This document shows, piece by piece, positions 4,179 to 53,396 of a stretch of 53,396 nt of DNA. The DNA is from an uncultured Candidatus Saccharibacteria bacterium (GTDB lineage: Bacteria; Patescibacteriota; Minisyncoccia; 2-02-FULL-40-12; IGHO2-12-FULL-4): assembly GCA_964580765.1 (NCBI GenBank), contig CAZOKW010000003.1, forward strand, positions 1-53,396, read 5' to 3'. Position 1 is the stretch's first letter, and each line of letters begins with the position of its first letter. Made by a program: the position numbers and the translations under genes. Under the pieces are notes generated by a model. The model had not been told where the DNA came from and did no database searches. It saw only the letters and a list, made by a program, of their open reading frames with translations.

Positions 4179-4254
4179 CATATTGTTGACATTTTGGCTT
4201 TGAATCTCTCTCAAAAAGCTATAAACTATAAACTAAGAACTATAAACTTCTTTT

Positions 4255-5868
4255 ATGGGGTCTACTAAGATTATCAATGTCCTCAAAAACGATAATTTCG
4301 AGGATGTTTTGGATGCCTTTCAAAAAACCGAAGCCGAGGAGGTCATCTTTATTTTCCCCAAAAATTCCTTATTGTCCAAGAAAGAACAACATTTCGCCCA
4401 ACTGGCCAGTGAGGCCGAAAAAACCAATAAACAAATCAGCGTCATAACGGCCGACCAAAACATCGAAAATTATGCCGAAAAATATGGCCTGCGGTTTATG
4501 GCCCAGCCGATTAAAAGTAAAAAGACCCCAGTTCTAGCCAAAATTGAGGCTAAGCCTCAATTAGAAGAAGTAGACAATGGACTTGGCGATGAGACAGAGA
4601 ACCACGAGGAACAATTAGCCGAATTGACCATGGCCAGCCCGAGGAAAACTTCCAAAACCGGAACGGCTAACAAGAAATTAGAAAAACTGGAAAGTTTTTG
4701 GGGAGGGTTTAATTTATCCTTGATTAAAAGAGGCGGGGGGCACCATAAATTAAATCTCCTTTTAATTTCTTCGGCTGTGGCCGCACTTCTTTTGACTTTG
4801 TTCATATTTTTAGGAAACGCCCAGATAATTATCAAACCGCAAAAACAAAAAATCCATTTTGAACTACCTGTATCTGTTTCGACCAACCTTGCTAAAACCG
4901 ATGCTATGGCAAACCAAATTCCCGGACAATTTCTGGCTTTTCGGGCCGATGTTTCCAAAGATTTTCCCTCCACCGGCGAAGAGGAGTTGGTCAGAAAAGC
5001 CAGAGGAGAACTTACCGTTTTTAATAATTTTAATTCCGATCCCCAAGGGTTAAGGGCCACCACCCGTTTTGAATCATCAAAAGGTTTAATTTTTAGAACG
5101 CCTCGGGCGATTATCGTCCCCGGAGCCAAACTGGTTAACGGCAAACTCGTTCCCGGCTCAATGACCGTCGAGGTGATTGCCGATAAACCTGGCCAGGAAT
5201 ACAATATTAATGCCGATCGTTTCACCATTCCCGGTTTTGCCGGTACGCCCAAATTTGAAGGTTTTTACGCCGAATCTTCCCAGCCAATGAGCGGGGGAAT
5301 GATTGGCCTCTCTAAAGTGGTAACCGAAAAGGACTTTAATTCGGCTAAGGACCTGGTAACCAAAGAATCCCTGGCCAAATCTCTGGAAAATTTAAAAACT
5401 AAAAAAGGGGAGCTGGAAATTGTTGAACCGATTACCAACAACATTATCTCCCTCAAATCTACGGCAGAAATAGACGATTCCGCCGATGGTTTTGCTATCG
5501 CCGCTACGGCCGAGGCGAAAACAATCGGTTTCTCCAAAGAAGATCTTCTCAAACTGATTGAGGCCTCCCTCAATAAAAACGGCCGTTGGATGCTTTTGGA
5601 AGAAGGTCTGCGGGTAGATTACACAAATATTAAATTTGATTTTGCCAAAAACACCCTAAACTTTACCGCTACGACTACCGGAACAGCGGTGGCCAGAATT
5701 GAAGAAGAAAAAATTATTGACGGCTTACCGGGCTTAAAACAAAACAAAATAGAAAATTACCTTTTAGGCTTTAAAGAAATTGAGTCGGCCCGGGTGATCC
5801 TTTCCCCTTTTTGGGTTAAAAGCATTCCCAAAGACAAACAAGATATACGAATAAAAATCGTCTATTAA
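4255..5868 (+). CDS. hypothetical single-pass membrane protein (537 aa)
   Basis: Long ORF preceded by tataaact repeats. One hydrophobic helix LLLISSAVAALLLTLFIFLG after a roughly 165-aa N-terminal region. No recognisable motifs. Confidence 0.5.
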   Translation: MGSTKIINVLKNDNFEDVLDAFQKTEAEEVIFIFPKNSLLSKKEQHFAQLASEAEKTNKQISVITADQNIENYAEKYGLRFMAQPIKSKKTPVLAKIEAKPQLEEVDNGLGDETENHEEQLAELTMASPRKTSKTGTANKKLEKLESFWGGFNLSLIKRGGGHHKLNLLLISSAVAALLLTLFIFLGNAQIIIKPQKQKIHFELPVSVSTNLAKTDAMANQIPGQFLAFRADVSKDFPSTGEEELVRKARGELTVFNNFNSDPQGLRATTRFESSKGLIFRTPRAIIVPGAKLVNGKLVPGSMTVEVIADKPGQEYNINADRFTIPGFAGTPKFEGFYAESSQPMSGGMIGLSKVVTEKDFNSAKDLVTKESLAKSLENLKTKKGELEIVEPITNNIISLKSTAEIDDSADGFAIAATAEAKTIGFSKEDLLKLIEASLNKNGRWMLLEEGLRVDYTNIKFDFAKNTLNFTATTTGTAVARIEEEKIIDGLPGLKQNKIENYLLGFKEIESARVILSPFWVKSIPKDKQDIRIKIVY

Positions 5869-7818: not shown

Positions 7819-7907
7819 AAATAAGTTATAAAGTTCATAAAGTTCATAAAGTAAAAAATTTTGACTTGATGGACTTGATAAACTTTATAACTTGATAAAC
7901 TAATATC

Positions 7908-8804
7908 ATGATTCAACTACCGGAAAAGTTATTAATTTTAAACGAAAAAGGAGATAAAATGACCTTTGAACTCTTACCTTTATATCCCGGTTACGGCATA
8001 ACCGTCGGCAATACTTTAAGAAGAATCCTTTTATCTTCCATAGAAGGCGCGGCCATTACTACCATTAAAATAAAGGGGGTCAGCCACGAATTCGCTACCA
8101 TTGAAGGCGTCTTGGAGAATGTCATTGAGATTATCATGAATATCAAGAAAATCAGATTGAAATCTTTCAACGAAGAACCGATAACTATGGAACTCAAGGT
8201 AAGCGGAGAAAAAGAAGTACTGGCTAAGGACATTAAAACAGGTCCGGATGTGGAGATAACCAACAAGGAACAGCTGATTGCCACTTTGACCAATAAGAAA
8301 GCGGAGTTAGAAATAGAATTAACCGTTGAGAAAGGCATCGGTTATGTACCAATCGAGCAAAGACAAAAAGAAAAAATTTCCGTGGGGACAATTGCCATTG
8401 ACGCCCTTTTCTCCCCCGTTAAAAACGCTAATTTTACTGTGGAAAATATCCGAGTTGGCCAAAGAACCGATTATAATAAGCTGGTATTTGAAGTGGAGAC
8501 AGATGGAATTATTTCACCAAGACAAGCAGTTCGGCAAGGATTGGACATCCTGTTAAAACATCTGGAAGTCATTGCCCAGGGATTGGGCAATGACGGTCAG
8601 GAATTGGCCAATAACGGTCAGGAATTGGGCACTAACAGTAGAGAATTGACCAATAACAGTAGAGAATTGGGCACCCCCGTACTCGCCTCGCCGAAGCCTC
8701 CGGCGGAGCGCGGGCCGGCCTTGACTTCCGTTAAGACGAAGTCCCCGGAGCCAAAAGTGGAGAAAGAGGAAAAGAAAGCGAAAAGAAAATCAAAAGAGAA
8801 ATAA
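7908..8804 (+). CDS. rpoA: RNA polymerase alpha subunit, NTD only plus repeat/lysine-rich tail
   Basis: The NTD reads GYGITVGNTLRRILLSSIEGAAIT. After about residue 225 there is no recognisable alpha-CTD, only 4 x 21-nt tandem repeats and a K/E/P-rich tail. Confidence 0.85.
   Translation: MIQLPEKLLILNEKGDKMTFELLPLYPGYGITVGNTLRRILLSSIEGAAITTIKIKGVSHEFATIEGVLENVIEIIMNIKKIRLKSFNEEPITMELKVSGEKEVLAKDIKTGPDVEITNKEQLIATLTNKKAELEIELTVEKGIGYVPIEQRQKEKISVGTIAIDALFSPVKNANFTVENIRVGQRTDYNKLVFEVETDGIISPRQAVRQGLDILLKHLEVIAQGLGNDGQELANNGQELGTNSRELTNNSRELGTPVLASPKPPAERGPALTSVKTKSPEPKVEKEEKKAKRKSKEK
8590..8673 (+). repeat. 4 x 21-nt in-frame tandem repeat in the rpoA 3' region
   Basis: caatgacggtcaggaattggc / caataacggtcaggaattggg / cactaacagtagagaattgac / caataacagtagagaattggg, encoding NDGQELA, NNGQELG, TNSRELT, NNSRELG. 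Confidence 0.8.
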
Positions 8805-13191: not shown

Positions 13192-14445
13192 ATGTCAAGT
13201 AATCCCCTGAAAAAAATCGCCTTAGTTCATGACTGGCTTTTGGGATTGGGGGGGGCGGAGAGGACACTGAAGGTTCTGCATGAGATGTTTCCCCAAGCGC
13301 CAATTTATACTTTTTTTTACAACAAAAAATTTACCGATAAATTTTTACCGAACGCTCAAATTAGACCCTCCTTCATCCAGAAAATTTGTAAACTAAAAAC
13401 TATAAACTATAAACTATTCTTGCCCCTTCTGCCCATTGCCGCCGAGTCATTTGATTTAAGCCATTTTAATCTGGTCATCTCATCTTCCATCGCCTTTTCC
13501 AAGGGACTGATTTTGAAACCGAAAACAAAACATATCTGCTATTGCTACAGTCCCACTCGATTTTTGTGGGATTGGCACCAGGAATATTTACTTGGAAACG
13601 GGGTTTCCAAGTTAAATAAAGGATGGGGAGTTAAAATACTTCAACATTTTTTAAGAATCTGGGACCGGCAGTCCGCCAATCGGGTGGACCAGTTTGTGGC
13701 TATTTCCAAAACTGTTCAGCAACGCATTAAAAAATATTACGGACGAGATTCGATTGTAATTTATCCGCCAGTTACCAGAATTGAAAGCAGTGTACTCCCT
13801 CGGGACATTGATTTTCCCAGCGAGAAAATCAATTCACTGTCGGCTATGGATTTTGTCCGAAGTGAGGAAATTATACTTCGTCCAAACCATGCAATCCACA
13901 GCCGACAGTGCCCTCTGGAGTACACTGCTTCCAAATCTGATCTCATACCAAATTATTACTTAATCGTTTCCCGTTTATTCCCACACAAAAACATTGATAT
14001 CGCTATCAGGGCCTTTAACAAATTGGAACTGCCTCTGATAATTATCGGCGCTGGGCCGGAATATGGAAAATTAAAAAAAATAATTGAGAACAAGAATATG
14101 ATAAAATTACTGGGAGAGGTGCCGGATACAGAATTAGGAAACTATTACGCCGATACTAAGGCCTTTATCATGCCACAGGAAGAGGACTTTGGCATGACTC
14201 CATTGGAAGCCATGGCCTTTGGCAAACCGGTTCTGGCCTTGCGAAAAGGAGGGGCGCTGGAGTATGTTTTAGAAGGAATCAATGGAGAATTTTTTGACGA
14301 CCCTCATCCCGCCATTTTAGCCGACGGGGTCCGCCGTTTAAACGAAAATTATAAAAATTACAGCCCTTTAGTCATAAAAAAAACTGCGGAAAGATTTTCA
14401 CGCAGTCGGTTTGAAGAGGAGATAAAAAACATTATTTCAAAATGA
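13192..14445 (+). CDS. GT4-family glycosyltransferase with an in-frame palindromic-element insertion
   Basis: N-terminal ALVHDWLLGLGGAERT glycosyltransferase motif. The 141-bp family-4 element at 13788-13928 is a multiple of 3 and keeps the frame. Confidence 0.7.
   Translation: MSSNPLKKIALVHDWLLGLGGAERTLKVLHEMFPQAPIYTFFYNKKFTDKFLPNAQIRPSFIQKICKLKTINYKLFLPLLPIAAESFDLSHFNLVISSSIAFSKGLILKPKTKHICYCYSPTRFLWDWHQEYLLGNGVSKLNKGWGVKILQHFLRIWDRQSANRVDQFVAISKTVQQRIKKYYGRDSIVIYPPVTRIESSVLPRDIDFPSEKINSLSAMDFVRSEEIILRPNHAIHSRQCPLEYTASKSDLIPNYYLIVSRLFPHKNIDIAIRAFNKLELPLIIIGAGPEYGKLKKIIENKNMIKLLGEVPDTELGNYYADTKAFIMPQEEDFGMTPLEAMAFGKPVLALRKGGALEYVLEGINGEFFDDPHPAILADGVRRLNENYKNYSPLVIKKTAERFSRSRFEEEIKNIISK
13788..13928. 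mobile_element. family-4 palindromic element (TIR gcagNNtact...ccctc) inside the GT4 gene
   Basis: Outer inverted repeat gcagtgtactcc / ggagtacactgc. Inner pair cactgtcggctatggat / atccacagccgacagtg. Core ggattttgtccgaagtga...ttcgtccaaaccatgcaatcc is shared with the copy at 50689-50839. Confidence 0.6.
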
Positions 14446-15520: not shown

Positions 15521-15691
15521 CTAGCTTTCGTTCAAATATGACCGATTGGCTGCAAATTACCGAAGCGGAGTGAAAATTTGGCCGGTAGATTAAAATTCGG
15601 TCCGACTCTTGGAGGGGTACTGAATTTTAGTCGGCAAATTGAGCAAAGCGAGGATAATTTGTCCAAGAGGACATCTTGAAAAGAGAGCTGG
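15521..15691 (+). ncRNA. candidate structured element SE, copy 1, upstream of the GT4 gene
   Basis: Near-identical to 34399-34589 over about 160 nt (ttcaaatatgNNcgattgg...ggaggggtactgaattttagtcggcaaattga...gcgaggataatttgtccaagagg.catcttgaaaagaga). It ends 17 nt before the ATG at 15709. Confidence 0.4.
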
Positions 15692-15708: not shown

Positions 15709-16875
15709 ATGTTAAGAATTGGTATAGAGTGCCATGCTCTAGAGGCAAATCGTTGGGGAGTGGGGCACCACTTAGCAAAACTGCTTGAAGAAATTTCTAT
15801 AAAATCTGAACTCGCCAACGAGTTCAGATTTTATCTTTACTTTAAAGGTCGTATTCCTGACGATTCTTACCTTAATAACCCCATCTTTGTAAAAAGAATT
15901 TTAAAACTACCCCTCATTAGTCCATCTTTTAACATTTTTTTTCATTTTCTTTTGCCCCTGGTCTACTTCAGAGACCATCTGCAAGCGGTCTTTTTTGCCG
16001 GTTTTATGTTGCCGGCATTTTTTCTGGGAAAATCATTGGTTCTTCTGACTAGCGACGTCTACTACGAATACACTCAAGGCCAATTGCCATTTCGCTACAA
16101 ATTGAGCTACGCCCTTTTCGCTAATTGGGCCGCTTGGCGCGCCACCAAAATTACCTCTCTATCAAACACGGACAAAGAGGAAATAGTAAAGATGTTTAAA
16201 ATTGCTCCTGAAAAAATCTCAGTCAATTATTTAGGGGTTGACCAAAAGCAGGTGGTTACCTCCCTTTTGCAGTTCGTCGGCGACGAGTCCGACGCAAAAA
16301 AGGGAGGTAACCACCTGCCTTTAAATTATCTTTTGTATGTTGGTCAAGCTTTTCCCCGAAGGAGAGCCAAGGAAACTATTCAATCCTTTGCTATTTTAGC
16401 TCCTAAGTATCCTGATTTAAAATTAATTCTGGTCGGCCAAGATAAATACAATCCGCCCGTTCTGCAAAATTTAGTTAAAGAAACAAACCAAAAACTCGGC
16501 GGGGAAAGAATAATTTATCATGGTTACATAGAAAACGACGATGAACTGCAAAAACTGATGGCCGGAGCAAAATTATTTATTTATCTATCGTCTTCCGAGG
16601 CCTTTGGTATTCCACCCCTGGAAGCACTAGCCGCCGGCGTTCCTCCGATAGTTAAAGACAACGACCTGAATCATGAACTTTATGAAGGCCATGCTTTTTA
16701 TGTGAAAGATGAAAAAGACCCGGTACAAATTGCCCTTGCTCTGGAAAAAGCTCTGACCGATATCGTCCGCCGTCAAGAAATTATTCAAAATTCAGAAAAA
16801 GTAATTTCAAAGTTCAACTGGAAAAATCACGCCGAAAAATTCCTTGAGACCATGAGAGAAATAGTAAAAAATTAA
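15709..16875 (+). CDS. GT4/GT1-family glycosyltransferase
   Basis: C-terminal EAFGIPPLEALAAGVPPIV retaining-GT motif. Confidence 0.7.
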   Translation: MLRIGIECHALEANRWGVGHHLAKLLEEISIKSELANEFRFYLYFKGRIPDDSYLNNPIFVKRILKLPLISPSFNIFFHFLLPLVYFRDHLQAVFFAGFMLPAFFLGKSLVLLTSDVYYEYTQGQLPFRYKLSYALFANWAAWRATKITSLSNTDKEEIVKMFKIAPEKISVNYLGVDQKQVVTSLLQFVGDESDAKKGGNHLPLNYLLYVGQAFPRRRAKETIQSFAILAPKYPDLKLILVGQDKYNPPVLQNLVKETNQKLGGERIIYHGYIENDDELQKLMAGAKLFIYLSSSEAFGIPPLEALAAGVPPIVKDNDLNHELYEGHAFYVKDEKDPVQIALALEKALTDIVRRQEIIQNSEKVISKFNWKNHAEKFLETMREIVKN

Positions 16876-18749
16876 TGCGAGAGGCTCCGGTGGACATACT
16901 TTTGTTCGACGGCGCTACAGGGATTCCGCAACGGGCCACTGCAGACATTGTGGCTACCGTTGCGGAACCTTCCATGCGACACAAAAGTGTCCCCACTCCG
17001 CCTCTGGTAAATATGTTTAAACACTTTGATACTCTTAAAAAACCAGTTAATGTCATCTTCCTAGTCCAAATTGTGGTCGTCTTTTTGGTGGCCTTCGGTG
17101 TCTGGCCAAGAACACTGATAATTCCTTTGACGGCCTTAATCGCCATTTTTATTTTACGAGCCGATTTGGAAACATCCGCTTCTTTTTTTATCCGCTCCAT
17201 ACCACTTTTCGTGGCCATTCCTTTTACCTCTTATTTTGATTCTTTCAATATCTGGCGAATCGCCGGGGGATTGATTTTTTTGAAATGGTTTTATCAATCG
17301 TACAAAGAAAGGATAAGAATAGCGGGCAAATCAGCCATACACCTACTCGAAAATTCCCGAGGAGATTCTATGGGCGGGCTAAAGCACCGCCCACCAGAAA
17401 CTTCTCCTGACAGCGACAGTCGAGGGTCGAGAGTGGGTGGTATGGCTGATTTGCTAGTCATAAAAATTAAAAAATATCCTTTAGCGTCTTTGTTAACGAC
17501 TTTTCTTTTACTTTCCACCCTATCCCTTCTAGCCGCCGAAGATATTTTTACTGGAATCAAAAGAATAATTTATTTAATCAATTTGAGTTTAGTTCCTCTA
17601 GTCGTTTACGACTTGATTAAAAAAAAACCCGCCCTCATCAAAAAGTTCTTAGATAGCATTTTGATTTCTGGAGTAATCGTGGCCGGAGTCGGCATCACCC
17701 AGTTAGTCAGCGCTTACTTAATGCCTTTGGGCGCTTTTCTGGATTTTTGGGGAGGTACGGTTCAGCTTGGCTTTTATGGCTCACAGTGGTCCAGTATCGC
17801 TTTAGAAGGGAACACTTGGTTTGCCTACTTCGGCGACCAACTATCTTTGCGAATTTTTTCAACTTTTACGGACTCTCACTCTTTTCCGGTTTACCTTTTA
17901 ATGACAATTCCAGCTCTCTTGGCTTTAGCTAAACTCACTTGGAAACGGGGTTTCCAAGTGAGTGGAATCGTTCTCCTTGTCTTGTATCTTCTGATTATCC
18001 TAAGCGGCACCCGAGGAATATGGTTAGCCGTTTTAGGACCTTTACTGGCTTGGCCGGTTTTAGTTAATTTTCTAAAAAGGGATGGGGGGAGTTTAGAAAA
18101 AAGTTTGTTAAAAAAACTCGGATTGCTCCTTTTGCCATTTTTTCTTCTTTTCGCCGCCGCTTTTCCTATTATGGGCTCGGACCAATTCTGGGTTGAAAAA
18201 GAAAATAATCAAATTCTGGCCAAACGGATTCGTTCCGTTCTCGATTTGAACGAGACATCAAATAGTGGACGGGTAGAAATCTGGAAAAAAACGGTCAAAT
18301 CAATTATTCACCGTCCGCTCCTGGGGGTGGGGATTGGTAACTTTCCAACTGTTCTTTCTCAGCATACTGACTTGGCCAAAGCCGGCTCTTCTGCGCATAA
18401 TCTCTATCTCCATATTGCCGCCGAAATCGGCCTAGTCGGGCTTTTAGCCGCTTTAGGTATTTTGTTCATAATTTTAAAAAGAAGTTGGGATGTTTTCCGA
18501 AGAGCCAATCAGCCACACCCCCACTCGAAAATTCCCGAGCGAGGAGTCGGGGGTCGAGAGTGGGTCGGTGTGGCTGATTGGCTCACTATTAAAACCTACG
18601 CTGCCGCTTTTGTCCTTTACAGTTTGTGGGTTTTGTTTTACTCTTTAACGGATGCGATAATGTTTGACGAGCGCGTTTTTCTCGTTTTTGCCATTAATTC
18701 AGCCGTTATTTTAGGTCTATATAAAACAAAATCCGCCTTAGCGGATTAA
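16875..18749 (+). CDS. O-antigen ligase (Wzy_C)-like polytopic membrane protein, with two in-frame family-2 element insertions
   Basis: Many TM helices. HNLYLHIAAEIGLVGLL Wzy_C-like motif. The start is uncertain because the first 40 codons overlap a family-1 remnant. Confidence 0.6.
   Translation: MREAPVDILLFDGATGIPQRATADIVATVAEPSMRHKSVPTPPLVNMFKHFDTLKKPVNVIFLVQIVVVFLVAFGVWPRTLIIPLTALIAIFILRADLETSASFFIRSIPLFVAIPFTSYFDSFNIWRIAGGLIFLKWFYQSYKERIRIAGKSAIHLLENSRGDSMGGLKHRPPETSPDSDSRGSRVGGMADLLVIKIKKYPLASLLTTFLLLSTLSLLAAEDIFTGIKRIIYLINLSLVPLVVYDLIKKKPALIKKFLDSILISGVIVAGVGITQLVSAYLMPLGAFLDFWGGTVQLGFYGSQWSSIALEGNTWFAYFGDQLSLRIFSTFTDSHSFPVYLLMTIPALLALAKLTWKRGFQVSGIVLLVLYLLIILSGTRGIWLAVLGPLLAWPVLVNFLKRDGGSLEKSLLKKLGLLLLPFFLLFAAAFPIMGSDQFWVEKENNQILAKRIRSVLDLNETSNSGRVEIWKKTVKSIIHRPLLGVGIGNFPTVLSQHTDLAKAGSSAHNLYLHIAAEIGLVGLLAALGILFIILKRSWDVFRRANQPHPHSKIPERGVGGREWVGVADWLTIKTYAAAFVLYSLWVLFYSLTDAIMFDERVFLVFAINSAVILGLYKTKSALAD
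16878..16918. repeat. truncated family-1 hairpin element (half copy, minus orientation)
   Basis: gaggctccggtggacatacttttgttcgacggcgct matches the left half of the reverse-oriented copy at 36301-36380. Confidence 0.4.
17328..17452. mobile_element. family-2 RPE-like element, copy 2, with a 50-nt internal insertion
   Basis: Same termini aaatcagccatacacc / ggtatggctgattt. The extra internal hairpin is gggcgggctaaagcaccgccc. It is in-frame in the ligase gene. Confidence 0.65.
18505..18581. mobile_element. family-2 RPE-like element, copy 3
   Basis: ccaatcagccacacc / ggtgtggctgattgg is a perfect 15-bp terminal stem with paired compensatory changes (atac to acac, gtat to gtgt). It is read in a different frame from copy 2 within the same ligase gene. 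Confidence 0.65.
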
Positions 18750-19090: not shown

Positions 19091-20143
19091 ATGTCAACTC
19101 CACTGGTTACAATTAATTTAGTCGTTCTCAACGGTAAAAAATATGTCCGCCATTGTTTGAAGGCGGTGCAAGAGCAAACTTATCAGAATCTGGAAGTAAA
19201 TGTTTTTGATAATGGTTCCACCGATGGCACCAAAGAGATAATCCAAAATTGGAAATTGGAAATTGGAAATTGGAAATTGATTAATTTTATAGAAAGTAAA
19301 ATTAATCTCGGCACTTGGCCAGGGCAGGAAAAAGCGATGGAATCCTCACGAGGAAAATATATCGTGGCCCTTTCGGTAGATGTCTTAATGGAACCCACCG
19401 CGATTGAGAAAGCAGTAGTGGTTTTGGAAAAAGACGAAAGCATTGGCGCTCTGGAAGCCAAAATTTTACAATACACAATTGAGGCTAAGCCTCAATTTGA
19501 AGAAGGGGAGATTGTCAAAACAAATCTCATTGACACAATCGGTTTTCAAATTTTCCGCTCCAGAAGGATAACTAATTTGGGCCATGGAGAAGAAGATAGA
19601 GGACAATACAACCAAGAAAAAGAAATTTTTGCTGTAGAAGGAGCAGCGCCCGTTTTGCGAAAATCCGCTCTGGAAGAAATGCGGGTCTTGGGGGAAATAG
19701 CCGACCGGGAAATGTTTTGGTATGGAGATGACTTGGACTTGGCCTGGCGGATGAGATTGTTTGGCTGGAAACAAGTTTACAGCCCGGAAGTGGTGATGTA
19801 TCATGACCGTTCTACCACTAAAGGGGTAAGCCGAGGATGGAAAGATTATCTCTTCAGAGTGGGAGATAGAAAGAAAATTCCTACTTTAAAAAAGCGCCTG
19901 GACTGGCGGAATAAACGGCTGGCCAGAATAAAAAATGACCATTGGCAAAACGCGCTGAAAGACCTTTGGCCTATCGCTTGGCGAGAGCTCCGCGAATTGG
20001 GATATATTGCTCTTTTTGAACCGGCGGTTTTGCTGGAAATCCCCAAACTAATTCGCCTCCTTCCGCGCACTCTTAAAAAAAGGAAGGTGATAATGGCCCG
20101 AGCCAAAGTCGGCCCTAAAGAAATGAGTAAATGGTTTTTATGA
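19091..20143 (+). CDS. GT2-family glycosyltransferase containing a heptanucleotide tandem repeat
   Basis: VFDNGSTDGT and YGDDLDLAWR motifs. (ggaaatt)n at 19233-19268 lies inside the coding region. Confidence 0.7.
   Translation: MSTPLVTINLVVLNGKKYVRHCLKAVQEQTYQNLEVNVFDNGSTDGTKEIIQNWKLEIGNWKLINFIESKINLGTWPGQEKAMESSRGKYIVALSVDVLMEPTAIEKAVVVLEKDESIGALEAKILQYTIEAKPQFEEGEIVKTNLIDTIGFQIFRSRRITNLGHGEEDRGQYNQEKEIFAVEGAAPVLRKSALEEMRVLGEIADREMFWYGDDLDLAWRMRLFGWKQVYSPEVVMYHDRSTTKGVSRGWKDYLFRVGDRKKIPTLKKRLDWRNKRLARIKNDHWQNALKDLWPIAWRELRELGYIALFEPAVLLEIPKLIRLLPRTLKKRKVIMARAKVGPKEMSKWFL
19233..19268 (+). repeat. heptanucleotide simple-sequence repeat, 4 perfect GGAAATT units (about 5 AAATTGG-like units)
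   Basis: aaaattggaaattggaaattggaaattggaaattga. The unit length is not a multiple of 3, so a one-unit change would shift the GT2 frame. Confidence 0.75.
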
Positions 20144-21143: not shown

Positions 21144-21213
21144 AAGAGGCGGAGGGGAACACTTTTTTTGAGCGCCGTCGAATAAAAAAGTATGTTCACC
21201 AGAGCCTCTGGCG
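21144..21213. repeat. family-1 hairpin element
   Basis: aagaggcggaggggaacactttttttgagcgccgtcgaataaaaaagtatgttcaccagagcctctgg. It is the reverse complement of the copy at 36301-36380. Confidence 0.65.
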
Positions 21214-21218
21214 AGTAT

Positions 21219-22049
21219 ATGACTTTATCAATTATCATCGTTCACTATAAAAATCTTGAGCTTTTAAAATTGTGCCTCAAATCCATCCGAGAGACACTGC
21301 CACTGGAAAATTTAACCTATGAAACATTGGTGATTGATTCGTATGCCCAACCGGAAACCGGAGCGGTCTTATTCGAAAACTTTCCCGAAACAAAATATTT
21401 TCCTTTCAAAAAAAATATCGGCTATGCCGTTGGGGTCAACAGTGGGTTTAAAAATTCCTCCGGCCAATATTGTCTGATCTTAAACCCTGATATTGTTGTC
21501 ACTAAGGGGGCTATCTCTAAAATGCTTGAGCATCTGCAAAATCATCCGGAAGTGGGCCTGCTCGGGCCGCGCCTCCTTGGTTTCAACGGAGAAATCCAAA
21601 ATTCCCGCTTTCGGTTTTATCGCCCCTGGACCATCGCCTGCCGCCGGACATTTTTAGGAAAAAATATTTTAGGCCAAAAAGAACTAAGCCGTTTCAACTT
21701 GGCCAACCTCAATCCTTTAGATCAAATTTATCCCGATTGGATTATGGGTTCAGCCATACTGACTAGACGAGAAACCGTAGAGAAAGTAGGGCCAATGGAT
21801 GAAAGATTTTTTTTGTATTTTGAGGATGTTGACTGGGCCAGAAGATTTTGGGAAAATGGCTTTAAGGTGCTGTATTTTCCTGAAGCAGTCATGCTTCATT
21901 ATCACCAACGCAGTTCCCGAGCCGGATTTGATTTTTTAGATTTTTTCCTGCGCCGGGAAACTCGCTGGCACATTGCCAGTGGCCTAAAATATTTTCTAAA
22001 GCACGGCTGGCGCTATCGGTCAGGAGAAGAACTATATCATGCCAAATAA
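21219..22049 (+). CDS. GT2-family glycosyltransferase
   Basis: Start placed at ATG 21219 (MTLSIIIVHYKN...). The ORF-track start at 21192 lies inside the family-1 hairpin. DXD-type YFEDVDWARR motif. Confidence 0.7.
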   Translation: MTLSIIIVHYKNLELLKLCLKSIRETLPLENLTYETLVIDSYAQPETGAVLFENFPETKYFPFKKNIGYAVGVNSGFKNSSGQYCLILNPDIVVTKGAISKMLEHLQNHPEVGLLGPRLLGFNGEIQNSRFRFYRPWTIACRRTFLGKNILGQKELSRFNLANLNPLDQIYPDWIMGSAILTRRETVEKVGPMDERFFLYFEDVDWARRFWENGFKVLYFPEAVMLHYHQRSSRAGFDFLDFFLRRETRWHIASGLKYFLKHGWRYRSGEELYHAK

Positions 22050-34398: not shown

Positions 34399-34589
34399 AG
34401 TACCCACCCATCTTTTTTCAAATATGGTCGATTGGTTGCAAATTACCGAAGCGGAGTGAAAATTTGGCCGGTAGATTAAAATTCGGTCCGACTCTTGGAG
34501 GGGTACTGAATTTTAGTCGGCAAATTGAACGGAGCGAGGATAATTTGTCCAAGAGGGCATCTTGAAAAGAGAGGGGTGGGGACGGAGCT
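34399..34589 (+). ncRNA. candidate structured element SE, copy 2, upstream of fmt
   Basis: About 95% identical to copy 1. The 5' end gtacccacccatcttttttcaa is complementary to the 3' end cttgaaaagagaggggtggggac. It ends 9 nt before the fmt ATG. Confidence 0.4.
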
Positions 34590-34597
34590 GAAAACAA

Positions 34598-35488
34598 ATG
34601 AAAATTATTTTCTTTGGAACTTTTCAGTACGCCGTTCCGGCTTTGGAACGGTTAATTAAGGCCGGCTATGAGATTGTGGCCGTTGTCACTAACCCCGATT
34701 CTTTTCAGGGAAGAAAGAAAGAATTGGTGGCCAGTCCCGTCAAACTCGCCGCCCAGCAATACGGCTTAACTGTTTTTCAGCCTCCCAGTTTGAAAATTGG
34801 AAAATTAGAAAATTATTTGGAAATTGAAAATTTTAAATTGAAAATTAAATCCGCCGATCTGGGCATCGTCGTAGCCTACAGCAAAATAATCCCAAAAGAA
34901 ATTTTGGGATTATTTCCTAAAGGTGTTTTGAACATTCACCCCTCTCTCCTGCCCCTTTACCGGGGTCCCTCCCCTATTCAGTCGGCTATTTTAAACGGAG
35001 AAAAAGAAACGGGAGTAACCATTATGCAAATTGACGAAGAAGTGGATCACGGGGCCATTTTATCTCAAGCCAAATATGTAATTCCTCCCGAAGCGCTCCA
35101 CCCCCAAATTGCCATGGAAATTTTCCAGTTAGGAGCAGAACTTTTAATTAAAACTATCCCCGATTGGCTGGCTGGAAAAATCATCCCCCAGCCCCAAGAA
35201 CACACTTGTGCCACTTTTACTAAAAAATTCTCCTGGGAAAACGGGCGAATTGATTGGAATCAGCCGGCGGAAAAAATATATAACCAAATCCGCGCCCTCA
35301 ATCCTGAACCCGGCACCTGGACCACTTGGAAACGGGGTTTCCAAGTGAAAATCTTGAAAATATTAAAAGCCGAAATCGGAGAGGATGGAAAAGTACTTCC
35401 TCAAGAAGTCCAACCGGAAGGCAAAAAAGCCATGCCTTTCCAAGATTTCCTCCGTGGAGTTGGCCAAAAAGAACTGGATTTTAAATAG
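34598..35488 (+). CDS. fmt: methionyl-tRNA formyltransferase
   Basis: IIFFGT and HPSLLPLYRGPSPIQ SLLP-type motifs. There is a low-complexity AT-rich insertion LKIGKLENYLEIENFKLKIKS at 34795-34860. Confidence 0.85.
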   Translation: MKIIFFGTFQYAVPALERLIKAGYEIVAVVTNPDSFQGRKKELVASPVKLAAQQYGLTVFQPPSLKIGKLENYLEIENFKLKIKSADLGIVVAYSKIIPKEILGLFPKGVLNIHPSLLPLYRGPSPIQSAILNGEKETGVTIMQIDEEVDHGAILSQAKYVIPPEALHPQIAMEIFQLGAELLIKTIPDWLAGKIIPQPQEHTCATFTKKFSWENGRIDWNQPAEKIYNQIRALNPEPGTWTTWKRGFQVKILKILKAEIGEDGKVLPQEVQPEGKKAMPFQDFLRGVGQKELDFK

Positions 35489-42624: not shown

Positions 42625-42737
42625 GTTTGCTTCGCAAACTAGTTTATAAAGTTCGTAAAGTTCTTCAAGTTTATCAAGTAAGATTCTTTTTCAACTTCTT
42701 TACTTTATAAACTTGATGGACTTTATAACTTGATAAA

Positions 42738-43493
42738 CTAATTTAACTCGTTCATTTTTTTTGTTATGTATTTTAACAAAGATAGATTTCTGTGATAAGC
42801 CATGCGCATCGGCCCAATGACGGCCGAGACACCTTCATGCCCCTCCGGCAACGGATAGCGGGCAATAATTATGGCCTCTTTTTGAGTATGCTTATGGGGA
42901 TTTTCCCGGCCAATATAGACCACTAATTCTTTGGGGCCTTGTCCCAAAAACTGACTGAAATAATTTTCAAATTCATCAAAGATATTTCCAAAACCGAAAA
43001 AGTCATCCCTCTCCCTCGCCTCGCTGGAGCTCCGGCGAAGCGGGTCGAACTCCGGCGATTCCAAAATATTGGAAAACCCCATGCGATAAAATTCGTTGGT
43101 GTCGGCAAGACCGCTAATCACAAAATCATCCACCAGGTTAGACATGGTTTTGGCCAAACCGGAACTGATGGCATGCGCTTCACGGGGAGAATGCTCAATG
43201 GCCCGGTCAATCGCTCGGCGGTCCTGCGCCGGCAAGTCGCCGGTTTTTTCTTTTTCCTGAAGCAATTTATCCACAAAAAAACGGTAGGCCTTGTCGGTTG
43301 GCACCCGCCCGGCGGAAGTATGGGGCTGGCGAAGATAACCATCCTTTTCCAATCCCATCATCTCCGCCCGCAAAGTGGCCGGACTGCAGTCAAACCCGCA
43401 TTTTTCCGCCAAAAAACTTGAGCTGATTGGTTCGGCCTTTTTGACATATTCTTTAATTAAGACCTGGAGTATTTCCTCCTGCCTGGAAGTCAT
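42738..43493 (-). CDS. hrcA: heat-inducible transcription repressor HrcA
   Basis: N-terminal winged-helix ILQVLIKEYVKKAEPISSSFLAEKCGFDCSPATLRAEMMGLEKDGYL. Sits directly upstream of clpB. Confidence 0.85.
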   Translation of the reverse strand: MTSRQEEILQVLIKEYVKKAEPISSSFLAEKCGFDCSPATLRAEMMGLEKDGYLRQPHTSAGRVPTDKAYRFFVDKLLQEKEKTGDLPAQDRRAIDRAIEHSPREAHAISSGLAKTMSNLVDDFVISGLADTNEFYRMGFSNILESPEFDPLRRSSSEARERDDFFGFGNIFDEFENYFSQFLGQGPKELVVYIGRENPHKHTQKEAIIIARYPLPEGHEGVSAVIGPMRMAYHRNLSLLKYITKKMNELN

Positions 43494-49032: not shown

Positions 49033-49291
49033 GTCCCACCCACCTTCTTTTCAAATATGAGCTCGCCGGCATAAATAAACGAAGATTTCTGAAATCAAGC
49101 CGGTAATAAAAATTGGGTCCGATGGTTTCGAGGGGTACTGAATTTTTGTCGGCTTGATGCGGTTAAAGTGAATTGTTTCACTTTAACCCCGAATTTTAGT
49201 CCGAGCTCCTGCGAGGACGTTAGGAAATTCGGAAAACCTTTTTATTGGCACGGCGAGTGATTCTTGAAAAGAGGTGGGTGGGGACGGAGCG
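49033..49291 (+). ncRNA. candidate structured element SE, copy 3 (divergent, with an extra internal hairpin), upstream of dnaB
   Basis: Shares ttcaaatatg, gccgg, ggtccga...gaggggtactgaatttt.gtcggc, gcgagga and cttgaaaagagg with copies 1 and 2. The 5' end gtcccacccaccttcttttcaa pairs with the 3' end cttgaaaagaggtgggtggggac. The inserted perfect hairpin is gttaaagtga/tcactttaac. Confidence 0.4.
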
Positions 49292-52198: not shown

Positions 52199-53314
52199 CT
52201 ATCTCCCTGGTGCCGCAGAAAAGGTCTGCGACTCCTGTTCCTTCGAGAAAGTGAGCTTATCGCTCGACGGAGCCAGGTCGATCTTGATCACATCACCCAG
52301 GCCGATCTGACCTGTCGCGATCAGATTCGACAACGGATAGACGAAGTGCCGTTCGATGGCGCGTTTTAAATGACGCGCACCATACTTCAGGTCGGTACCT
52401 TCGCGAAGGAGAAATTCTTTCGCCTCAGCCATGCATCGGAAATAAAACCTAATGTCCAACGAAGACGCCATGATGCGGTTCTGAACTTCATTCAGCTCGA
52501 TGTCCAGCACCTGCCTCAGGTCTTGATGGTTGAGCGTTCGGAAAACAACTACCTTATCGAGTCTGTTCATGAACTCGGGCGAGAACTTGCGTTTCGCCAC
52601 CTCGAGAGCGGTATGGTACATCTTCCGGTCAATCGATTCGAGGTTCGATGCGTCGGTGCGCACACCGGAAGTAAAGCCGATTCCTCCGCTGAGCATTTCG
52701 CTCATCTCGACGGCTCCGAGATTCGAGGTCATGAACACAACGCATCGCGACAGATCGACTTTGCGATTATCGCCCAGCGTCAATGTCGCCTTATCGAGGA
52801 TGCCCAGCAGGAGCTGCCACAGGGCCTCGTTTGCCTTCTCGATCTCGTCAAACAGGACGAAGGTCATTCGGCAACGATCGGTTTGATGCTGGTCGATCGC
52901 CTCCTGCGTCAGCAAAGGCGGAGTCTCACGGTGTCCGAGATAGCCCGGAGGGGAGCCGATCAATTTTGCGATTTCGTGGCTGTGCTGGAATTCGGCACAG
53001 TCAAGTTTTACAAAAGCCCGGGGGCTGCCGAAGAGAATCTCTGCAGAGGCCTCTACCACTCTTGTTTTACCTGAACCCGTTGGACCCAGAAAAAGCAGGT
53101 TACCGATCGGACGGCCCGGTACCGCCATGCCGGCCAGATAGATTTGATACATGTTCACAATTCTGCGAACCGCTCGATCCTGGCCGACGATCTTGCCCGA
53201 AAGACGGCGTTCGAAGTCGAGAACTTCCGAACTTCTTATTTCAGGATCGAGGAGTACCTCTTTTTGCGTTTGGGGCTTCATAAGCCCTCCTTTCTTAGTT
53301 ATTTGGGGCTTCAT
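52199..53314 (-). CDS. stand-alone Hsp100 D2-like AAA+ ATPase (ClpB C-terminal module homologue); GC-rich gene
   Basis: VGQDRAVRRIVN, FLGPTGSGKT and LIGSPPGYLGH...VLFDEIEKA...VFMTSNLG match the ClpA/B D2 module. Visibly GC-rich by eye (not counted). Two tandem start sites. Confidence 0.7.
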   Translation of the reverse strand: MKPQITKKGGLMKPQTQKEVLLDPEIRSSEVLDFERRLSGKIVGQDRAVRRIVNMYQIYLAGMAVPGRPIGNLLFLGPTGSGKTRVVEASAEILFGSPRAFVKLDCAEFQHSHEIAKLIGSPPGYLGHRETPPLLTQEAIDQHQTDRCRMTFVLFDEIEKANEALWQLLLGILDKATLTLGDNRKVDLSRCVVFMTSNLGAVEMSEMLSGGIGFTSGVRTDASNLESIDRKMYHTALEVAKRKFSPEFMNRLDKVVVFRTLNHQDLRQVLDIELNEVQNRIMASSLDIRFYFRCMAEAKEFLLREGTDLKYGARHLKRAIERHFVYPLSNLIATGQIGLGDVIKIDLAPSSDKLTFSKEQESQTFSAAPGR

Positions 53315-53336
53315 AAGCCCTCCTTTCTTAGTTATT
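53271..53336. repeat. perfect 2 x 33-bp tandem duplication covering the RBS and start codon of the Clp-D2-like gene
   Basis: tggggcttcataagccctcctttcttagttatt occurs twice. On the minus strand each unit carries AAGGAGGG followed by ATG, giving in-frame starts at 53314 and 53281. Confidence 0.8.
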
Positions 53337-53396
53337 TGAAGTTAATTGTTAAAAGGGTTTTTAAACCCTGACTTTCTTACTTATATTATACTAAAT

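Follow-up and report, generated by a model that had tools for sequence, protein, structure and literature searches.

The locus considered here raises the question of whether a heptanucleotide repeat lodged within a glycosyltransferase gene serves as a genetic switch or is a residue of the mutational habits of the genome that carries it. The stretch in question, hereafter the window, comprises the 53,396 nucleotides (nt) at positions 1–53,396 of contig CAZOKW010000003.1 (assembly GCA_964580765.1), deposited as an uncultured Candidatus Saccharibacteria bacterium, and the gene, at 19091–20143 on the + strand, is an open reading frame (ORF) of 350 amino acids (aa) coding for a GT2 glycosyltransferase, with the repeat near its 5′ end. 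An earlier note on this DNA had singled out the repeat as a candidate phase-variation switch. At a probability of roughly 0.55, we favor a reading wherein the tract is a simple sequence repeat (SSR) prone to slippage and acting as a low-frequency on/off switch, of the contingency type, of an envelope glycosyltransferase, because it is a real SSR capable of frameshifting, its class slips in nature, its periodicity is independent of the encoded peptide, and perfect arrays of the class are concentrated in envelope-glycan genes. For this particular gene the contingency-type reading is partly supported: judged by sequence, the locus has the features of an SSR contingency gene, namely a perfect intragenic non-triplet repeat wherein a change of one unit is predicted to abolish the product.

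The repeat is a perfect period-7 tandem array of 34 nt, (AAATTGG)x4.86, at 19246–19279 (+), its unit being a rotation of GGAAATT. The earlier note had placed it at 19233–19268; the perfect heptanucleotide is real, but the true span lies about 12 nt to the right, such that the interval originally given covers its first 23 nt. When the window was simulated 300 times with an order-2 Markov model, no perfect period-7 tract was longer than 21 nt, as opposed to the 34 nt observed, and within the 53 kb this tract is the sole perfect repeat with a unit of 4–9 nt and at least four copies. Read in frame, it codes for residues 53–63 of the GT2 protein, NWKLEIGNWKL (N53 to L63), just as had been claimed. 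As seven is not divisible by three, the gain or loss of one or two units shifts the frame: in silico, changes of −2, −1, +1 and +2 units shorten the product to 59, 60, 66 and 67 aa, respectively, in line with the frameshift that had been foreseen, while −3 and +3 units keep the frame and give 343 and 357 aa. The three-unit in-frame length (7 aa) is also the length found in intact genes. Every ±1 or ±2 unit variant terminates in silico no more than two codons past the tract; the sequence immediately 3′ of it, TTG ATT AAT TTT ATA G, has TGA, TAA and TAG in both other frames (TGA at 19278–19280, TAA at 19282–19284 and TAG at 19290–19292, together spanning 19278–19292 on the + strand). Slippage at replication that adds or removes one or two units would shift the frame, upon which the stop codons following at once would leave a product of about 60 aa lacking most of the catalytic domain.

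The protein itself is a GT2 enzyme, as the earlier note had it, matching PF00535 Glycos_transf_2 at 1.9e-17 (64.1 bits against a curated cut-off of 23.3); an NCBIfam search of it returned no specific equivalog. Its AlphaFold model (mean pLDDT 89.1, built on 36 homologues) adopts a GT-A fold, and the best fold matches recovered with Foldseek are the GT-A enzymes GalNAc-T and PcManGT (6yv7), at E ~1e-13. In the modeled secondary structure, the segment encoded by 19229–19297 (+) comprises helix alpha2 (residues 47–58), a short loop and strand beta3 (63–69) of the Rossmann-like domain, with the tract mapping to the C-terminal half of alpha2 and the turn preceding beta3. When the model is combined with the alignment, the 21 nt (7 aa) of extra tract correspond to an alpha2 longer by about two turns than in orthologues with a short linker, and the tract is thus predicted to code for a peripheral helix extension. 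Orthologues with 82–85% identity have a repeat-free 18-aa linker (xEFPQFNLIES), from which it follows that the insertion is unnecessary for the fold; this comparison bears out the earlier suggestion that the repeat is structurally unneeded.

The same site, defined as the segment between the conserved DNGSxDxT and NLGxWPG motifs, was compared across orthologous GT2 loci comprising 80 species-representative loci from genome contigs and 80 from metagenome contigs, the similarity-fetched set being counted as 162 (loci and proteins bear L and P numbers, respectively). A perfect period-7 tract of 26–35 nt occupies it in 23 of the 162 loci, or about 20 distinct orthologues once duplicate deposits are set aside; decayed tracts of 13–21 nt are found in many further loci and a short linker in about 20. 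These orthologous tracts use at least 11 different units: AAATTGG is present in the window, L016, L098 and L094; AAATGGC in L005 and L089; ATTTCGG in L022, L110 and L041; AAGCTAC in L017 and L120; and AAAATCG, AAGTTAC, AATTTAC, ACAGTGG, AAGCTTC, AAGTTTC and ACTATGG in one lineage each. The peptides at the site (for example NWKLEIG, WQMANGK, DFGFRIS, SYKLQAT, LQFTIYN and SGQWTVD) are unrelated. The closest relatives of tract-bearing genes often have a different unit or no tract at all: L016, with AAATTGG, is nearest to L022, with ATTTCGG, and the window gene is nearest to short-linker genes. At the same time units recur in unrelated lineages and at other loci, AAATTGG above all. Genes bearing an identical perfect unit share nucleotide identities of only 61–77%, with identity at 4-fold sites of 0.23–0.56, and between the window and L169 (56% aa identity) 27 tract bases are identical in the same register, with differing flanks. 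Against L168, the closest tract-bearing relative of the window gene (78% aa identity), there are 3 differences in the tract versus 8 in 54 flanking nt, which is not significant either way. Because at least 11 units and differing peptides occupy one site, with other close relatives lacking a tract, the 7-nt periodicity is conserved at the DNA level, independently of the encoded peptide and not as a protein requirement.

These comparisons bear directly on the alternative that the NWKLEIG heptad lengthens an amphipathic helix for the sake of folding, membrane association or partner binding, the DNA periodicity being incidental. Seven residues do amount to two helical turns, and the tract does fall in the C-terminal half of the helix at 47–58; further, degenerate peptides such as D-L/F-G-F-R-I-S-D-L-G-F persist in many species, and a protein of 56% identity also has NWKLEIGNWKL. 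Nonetheless, we consider such a role quite unlikely, given that the insertion is absent from the 82–85% identical orthologues, that the peptides at the same site are unrelated, and that synonymous positions within the tracts match from unit to unit and across diverged species, of which selection on the protein gives no account. Roles for the tract as a ribosomal-frameshift signal, as protein-binding iterons or as an RNA hairpin were likewise rejected, the units being unrelated between species and not self-complementary. Two conserved motifs with a 7-aa period, KRLDWRNKRL and ILKDLPxILK, were examined as potential heptanucleotide products and set aside as ordinary motifs, their codons being incompatible with such an origin; L096, whose start just past the site had hinted at an assembly break in a tract, proved to be a short-linker allele cut by the contig end. 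At the first GT2 site we also encountered insertions of 11–14 aa that interrupt an AAATTGG-type tract (L032, L128, L158 and P0158), as in GNWKL-ARPRQAFGEAGE-IGDS and KLEIEN-CLPASRCEARRAG-KLEI.

Changes in unit number came to light on listing the members of 90%-identity protein clusters, which yielded two truncated members on long contigs. The first, P0122 on L163 (ENA ERZ27254845, a 78 kb contig), aligns with the conspecific L017/L105 over 5820 mismatch-free nt interrupted by one 7-nt gap, by which AGCTACA goes from 4.43 to 3.43 copies (−1 unit) at exactly the site of the window tract. The second, P0213 + P0212 on L167 (ERZ27254767, a 59 kb contig), aligns with L051 over 6464 nt, again free of mismatches and interrupted by one 14-nt gap, by which ACCTACA goes from 5.14 to 3.14 copies (−2 units) at the second GT2 site and the gene is split into ORFs of 149 and 199 aa. 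As the repeat indel is the sole difference over 5.8–6.5 kb, such indels arise much more rapidly than point substitutions. In natural populations, then, this gene is truncated by the loss of units from tracts of the class. By extension from these orthologues, the window tract would slip in the same manner and the change of units would be reversible; the perfect repeat would be kept in glycan genes since the OFF state is sometimes advantageous, for instance in the face of phages or in host attachment, or is at least tolerated. Two other candidates for variation of this kind did not hold up: the 272-aa P0131 on L164 owes its disruption to a deletion of about 90 nt upstream of the tract, and the 7-aa difference between P0160 and P0215 is one of start codons, not of three units. 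Loci missed by the motif regex, which might have been frameshifts, were failures of the regex.

Several observations weigh against the proposed switch. In the first of the two species with OFF alleles (the P0059 cluster) 22 contigs are ON (20 with P0059, one with P0121 and one with P0123) versus 1 OFF, and in the second (the P0193 cluster) 14 are ON versus 1 OFF; the OFF state thus accounts for about 5% of contigs in both (about 1 in 15–23). A tblastn search found no frameshift in this gene among the 162 similarity-fetched loci. The three contigs of the species of the window (the window itself, GCA_007376105.1 and ERZ27284378) all have 4.86 units, although they may not represent independent populations, and a look-up via the neighboring LytR gene for OFF alleles of this species led back to the same three contigs, all ON. 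The ON copy number is nearly fixed at 4.0–5.3 units, the overall range with OFF alleles included being 3.1–5.3, and no allele of 7–8 units was seen among more than 200 proteins; OFF alleles are thus not common among the sampled genomes, nor is tract length broadly polymorphic. Strain pairs separated by 6 (L022/L160) and 68 (L120/L123) single-nucleotide polymorphisms are equal in tract length. Further, classical contingency tracts are long and widely variable, whereas those here are short, at about 4.5 units. Decayed arrays of the class in housekeeping genes, described below, point to a mutational origin of the class rather than one specific to switching. Finally, in neuO, the closest analogue discussed below, 65.6% of complete genomes are OFF (PMC13001214) versus the ~5% found here.

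Both OFF alleles, moreover, are contractions in short-read MEGAHIT k141 assemblies, which also counts against the switch and is the one observation that favors the notion of the tract or its orthologous variants being products of assembly or of chance low-complexity sequence. We regard this notion as extremely improbable: chance is excluded by the simulation, three contigs, which come from at least two assemblies, agree in the tract, equivalent tracts are present in dozens of metagenome-assembled genomes (MAGs) from different studies and assemblers, and tracts of 31–36 nt are far shorter than the reads and the k of 141. Sibling assemblies from the same pipeline as the OFF contigs retain the full tract. 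On balance, the phase-variation proposal of the earlier note stands in part: orthologous tracts do change copy number and truncate the gene (L163, L167), but the three contigs of this species are invariant, none of the 162 loci is frameshifted and the OFF state is limited to about 5%. The unit-number heterogeneity which it suggested looking for among related assemblies is seen in the orthologous tracts of L163 (−1) and L167 (−2); in this species, 3 of 3 contigs have 4.86 units.

The tract belongs to a class of repeats that extends well beyond this site. A census of perfect tandem repeats with at least three copies in about 0.85 Mb of related loci (L003–L162) returned 58 tracts of period 7 (18 with 3.x, 37 with 4.x and 3 with 5.x copies), next to 13 of period 4 (never with four copies), 1 of period 5, 1 of period 6 and 3 of period 8, and none of period 3 or periods 9–14. 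The period-7 tracts have a modal length of 31–32 nt and more than 30 different units, and nearly all lie in frame deep within long ORFs. With duplicate loci removed, this GT2 gene has 1.84 of them per 10 kb, the Wzy_C region 0.66, and the LytR, second GT2 and S41 peptidase regions 0.24, 0.20 and 0, respectively, the Wzy_C orthologues being the second most tract-rich gene of the set. Within the GT2 gene itself, further hot spots lie at codons 135–150 (the tip of a beta-hairpin) and at about codons 205–225. Across four longer stretches totaling 116 kb (the window, L169, L170 and L171), all perfect tracts are in glycosyltransferase genes (the focal GT2 four times, GT4 three times), and arrays in fmt, GluRS and the M23 peptidase are decayed to a 70–74% match. 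Perfect arrays are concentrated in envelope-glycan genes. Almost all arrays, the decayed ones included, have about 4.4–4.9 copies, which suggests that they arise as insertions of 21 nt; arrays of the class would then be born in frame.

That seven is almost the sole period leaves room for a mutational reading, with no switching role for the tract, beside the adaptive one. Here a quirk of replication or repair in the lineage would make 7-nt arrays through 21-nt in-frame insertions that are tolerated at permissive loops and helix ends, and the OFF alleles would be nulls on their way to being purged. Consistent with such a non-adaptive by-product, heptamers are almost the sole repeat class and are spread over many genes, including fmt, GluRS and the M23 peptidase; copy numbers of ~4.4–4.9 nearly throughout fit 1.x copies plus three units; the L016-type sequence “IIGNWKLEIGNSSF” and the L129-type “IIGNSSF” differ by exactly 21 nt (three units); the GT2 tracts occupy three permissive sites (the alpha2 end, the beta-hairpin tip and the region around aa 205–225); and ON alleles are overwhelmingly dominant, with OFF being rare. 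We nevertheless hold it to be a doubtful, if possible, account of the whole, as perfect tracts gather in GT2, GT4 and Wzy_C genes while the housekeeping arrays are decayed, an identical perfect unit is kept between genes whose synonymous sites are saturated, and each OFF allele sits on a long assembled contig that is otherwise clonal with its ON counterpart, this being the one contig retrieved from that sample, which is unexpected for a deleterious mutant being purged.

Besides the focal tract, the window itself contains three further arrays of the class. The first, (TAAACTA)x4.1 with a 90% match at 13389–13417 (+), lies in frame in the GT4 gene at 13192–14445 and has a perfect core of AAACTATx3 at 13397–13417. 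The second, at 34790–34846 (+), is a decayed array of a TTGAAAA-like 7/8-nt unit with about 8 copies and a 70% match, which is in frame inside the methionyl-tRNA formyltransferase gene fmt (34598–35488, identified by TIGR00460 at 264.9 bits) and encodes LKIGKLENYLEIENFKLKI; its presence there indicates that the repeat class also enters housekeeping genes. The third, (CTATAAA)x4.3 with an 82% match at 4219–4248, is intergenic, with no strand assigned, and lies just upstream of the ORF at 4255–5868. In the related loci, there are also a few perfect octanucleotide arrays, namely CAGCTTAC x4.6 at L110 2654–2690, AACTTACC x4.1 at L100 1190–1222 and AGATGCTT x3.6 at L044 6019–6047; two of these sit in intact GT2 genes, though 8 x 4.x fits no simple three-unit insertion.

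The gene neighborhood runs GT4, GT2, GT4, Wzy_C, GT2 (with the tract), LytR_cpsA_psr and GT2. Upstream of the focal gene lies one for a Wzy_C (O-antigen-ligase-like) membrane protein (16875–18749, +; PF04932), and downstream of it are a LytR_cpsA_psr gene (20131/20179–21138, +) and a second GT2 gene (21192–22049, +), both recognized by domain matches. On this domain-level annotation, the neighboring genes together constitute a predicted envelope-glycan cluster, and the tract-bearing gene is likely to act on a surface structure. The MAG Parcubacteria group bacterium Gr01-1014_44 (GCA_007376105.1) and one ENA assembly encode an identical GT2 protein, and relatives carry the annotation Candidatus Yanofskybacteria; we accordingly treat the source as an uncultivated Parcubacteria/Yanofskybacteria member from groundwater. 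The GT2 gene also varies by means other than the repeat: P0014 has an in-frame deletion removing the SVDV-motif segment, P0074 a large internal deletion, and L164 (GCA_000997305.1) the above-mentioned ~90-nt deletion with a frameshift; these disrupted alleles imply that the gene is dispensable at times. Further, we found mosaic alleles whose proteins are identical except for the tract-site segment (P0048/P0133 versus P0132/P0134, and P0049/P0125 versus P0124/P0126), which suggests that the variable segments recombine between lineages.

Among known repeat systems, the SSR-controlled glycosyltransferases of Neisseria, Haemophilus and Campylobacter offer a parallel in having an intragenic SSR with a unit that is not a multiple of three in a surface-glycan glycosyltransferase gene, theirs being switched by slipped-strand mispairing; the Neisseria gene pglE, for instance, has a CAAACAA coding repeat. 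In these genera, too, orthologues in different species can have different units. Their long tracts differ widely in length from isolate to isolate, and their switching rates have been measured. The short tandemly repeated repetitive (STRR) sequences of cyanobacteria are tandem heptanucleotide arrays dispersed in the genome, as are those that form the dominant repeat class here; however, they consist of many copies of a small number of fixed units and lie mostly between genes, whereas here there are more than 30 units, nearly all of them inside ORFs and in frame. We know of no accepted reason for the period of seven in STRR sequences.

The closest analogue is neuO, the capsule O-acetyltransferase gene of Escherichia coli K1 borne by the CUS-3 prophage, which has a variable-number tandem repeat of the heptanucleotide AAGACTC in its 5′ coding region, with 3–53 units; full-length protein is made only at a frame-fitting unit number, and strand slippage turns it ON and OFF (PMC13001214). 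The likeness lies in a heptanucleotide in the 5′ part of the ORF of a surface-polysaccharide enzyme, three units making one 7-aa heptad, whereas the differences are an acetyltransferase with AAGACTC in 3–53 units there versus a GT2 with AAATTGG here, the copy range being 3.1–5.3 units, and a host that in the present case is not a pathogen. In Haemophilus influenzae, tetranucleotide SSRs of 6–40 units dominate, with a few heptanucleotide loci (such as the hmw1A/2A promoters and an AACAACC tract), and differences in DNA metabolism have been proposed to set the class of SSR unit used (PMC2651432). That system resembles ours in having one favored unit length across a set of surface-related loci, but its units are of 4 nt, as opposed to 7 nt at about 4.5 units in an uncultivated lineage of the Candidate Phyla Radiation (CPR). 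Within the CPR, slipped-strand mispairing has been put forward as the means by which perfect repeat arrays in a hypervariable gene of a Gracilibacterium (BD1-5) grow and shrink (PMC6851277). These too are intragenic perfect arrays for which slippage has been invoked; unlike ours, they encode tripeptides and alter length without a frameshift, and are neither heptanucleotide nor an on/off switch. Full-text searches yielded no paper joining “heptanucleotide repeat” with “Candidate Phyla Radiation”, and among the papers mentioning simple sequence repeats with Patescibacteria there was nothing on repeat-based switches, the sole CPR paper on repeats and slippage that they returned being that on the Gracilibacterium tripeptide gene.

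The window has several other repeats apart from this class. A dispersed repeat of 157 nt is present at 15531–15687 and 34417–34573 with 95.5% identity, and a partial copy at 49099–49153; its full copies lie just upstream of gene starts (a GT4 gene at 15709 and fmt at 34598). Rfam, at its gathering threshold, recovered no RNA family in the window, this repeat included; candidate roles for the repeat are those of a leader, small RNA or promoter module. Relative to the window, the NCBI MAG contig (L001) has a 13-nt tandem duplication (GATTGGCTGCAAA) at 15543, at the edge of this repeat, and a 156-nt in-frame deletion at 16754–16909 that takes in the last part of the GT4 gene and the first part of Wzy_C. 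In rpoA (7908–8804), the 3′ end contains 21-nt repeats at 8577–8674 (4.6 copies, 83% match) encoding GQELANN/GQELGTN/SRELTNN/SRELGT, and two intergenic segments, at 7823–7901 just upstream of rpoA and at 42641–42739, resemble each other in having blocks of 9-nt repeats in which AAGTTCATA precedes ACTTGATAA. Close to the window’s end, at 53269–53338, a 33-nt sequence (TTTGGGGCTTCATAAGCCCTCCTTTCTTAGTTA) is perfectly duplicated in tandem, with 2.1 copies in all and a short hairpin-like palindrome (GGGCTTCATAAGCCC) within each copy.

To our knowledge, nearly all documented cases of phase variation mediated by repeats come from host-adapted pathogens. If the tracts described here are switches, then uncultivated ultra-small bacteria would vary their envelope glycans stochastically, with a bearing on both host attachment and phage evasion. 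A wider proposal, which we advance only tentatively and consider less than probable, is that Yanofskybacteria-like members of the CPR have a dedicated, heptanucleotide-only system, wherein a replication or repair property of the lineage makes the 21-nt insertions, and perfect arrays are retained in GT2, GT4 and Wzy_C genes as a stochastic surface-glycan “phasome” of an episymbiotic groundwater bacterium. Were this true, it would extend SSR-based phase variation beyond host-adapted pathogens, with a step of seven bases. Arrays of about 4.5 units occur even in genes for which a frameshifted intermediate ought to be fatal, and the near-exclusive period of seven, along with the fixed number of about 4.5 units, points to some as yet unrecognized feature of how this lineage replicates or repairs its DNA.

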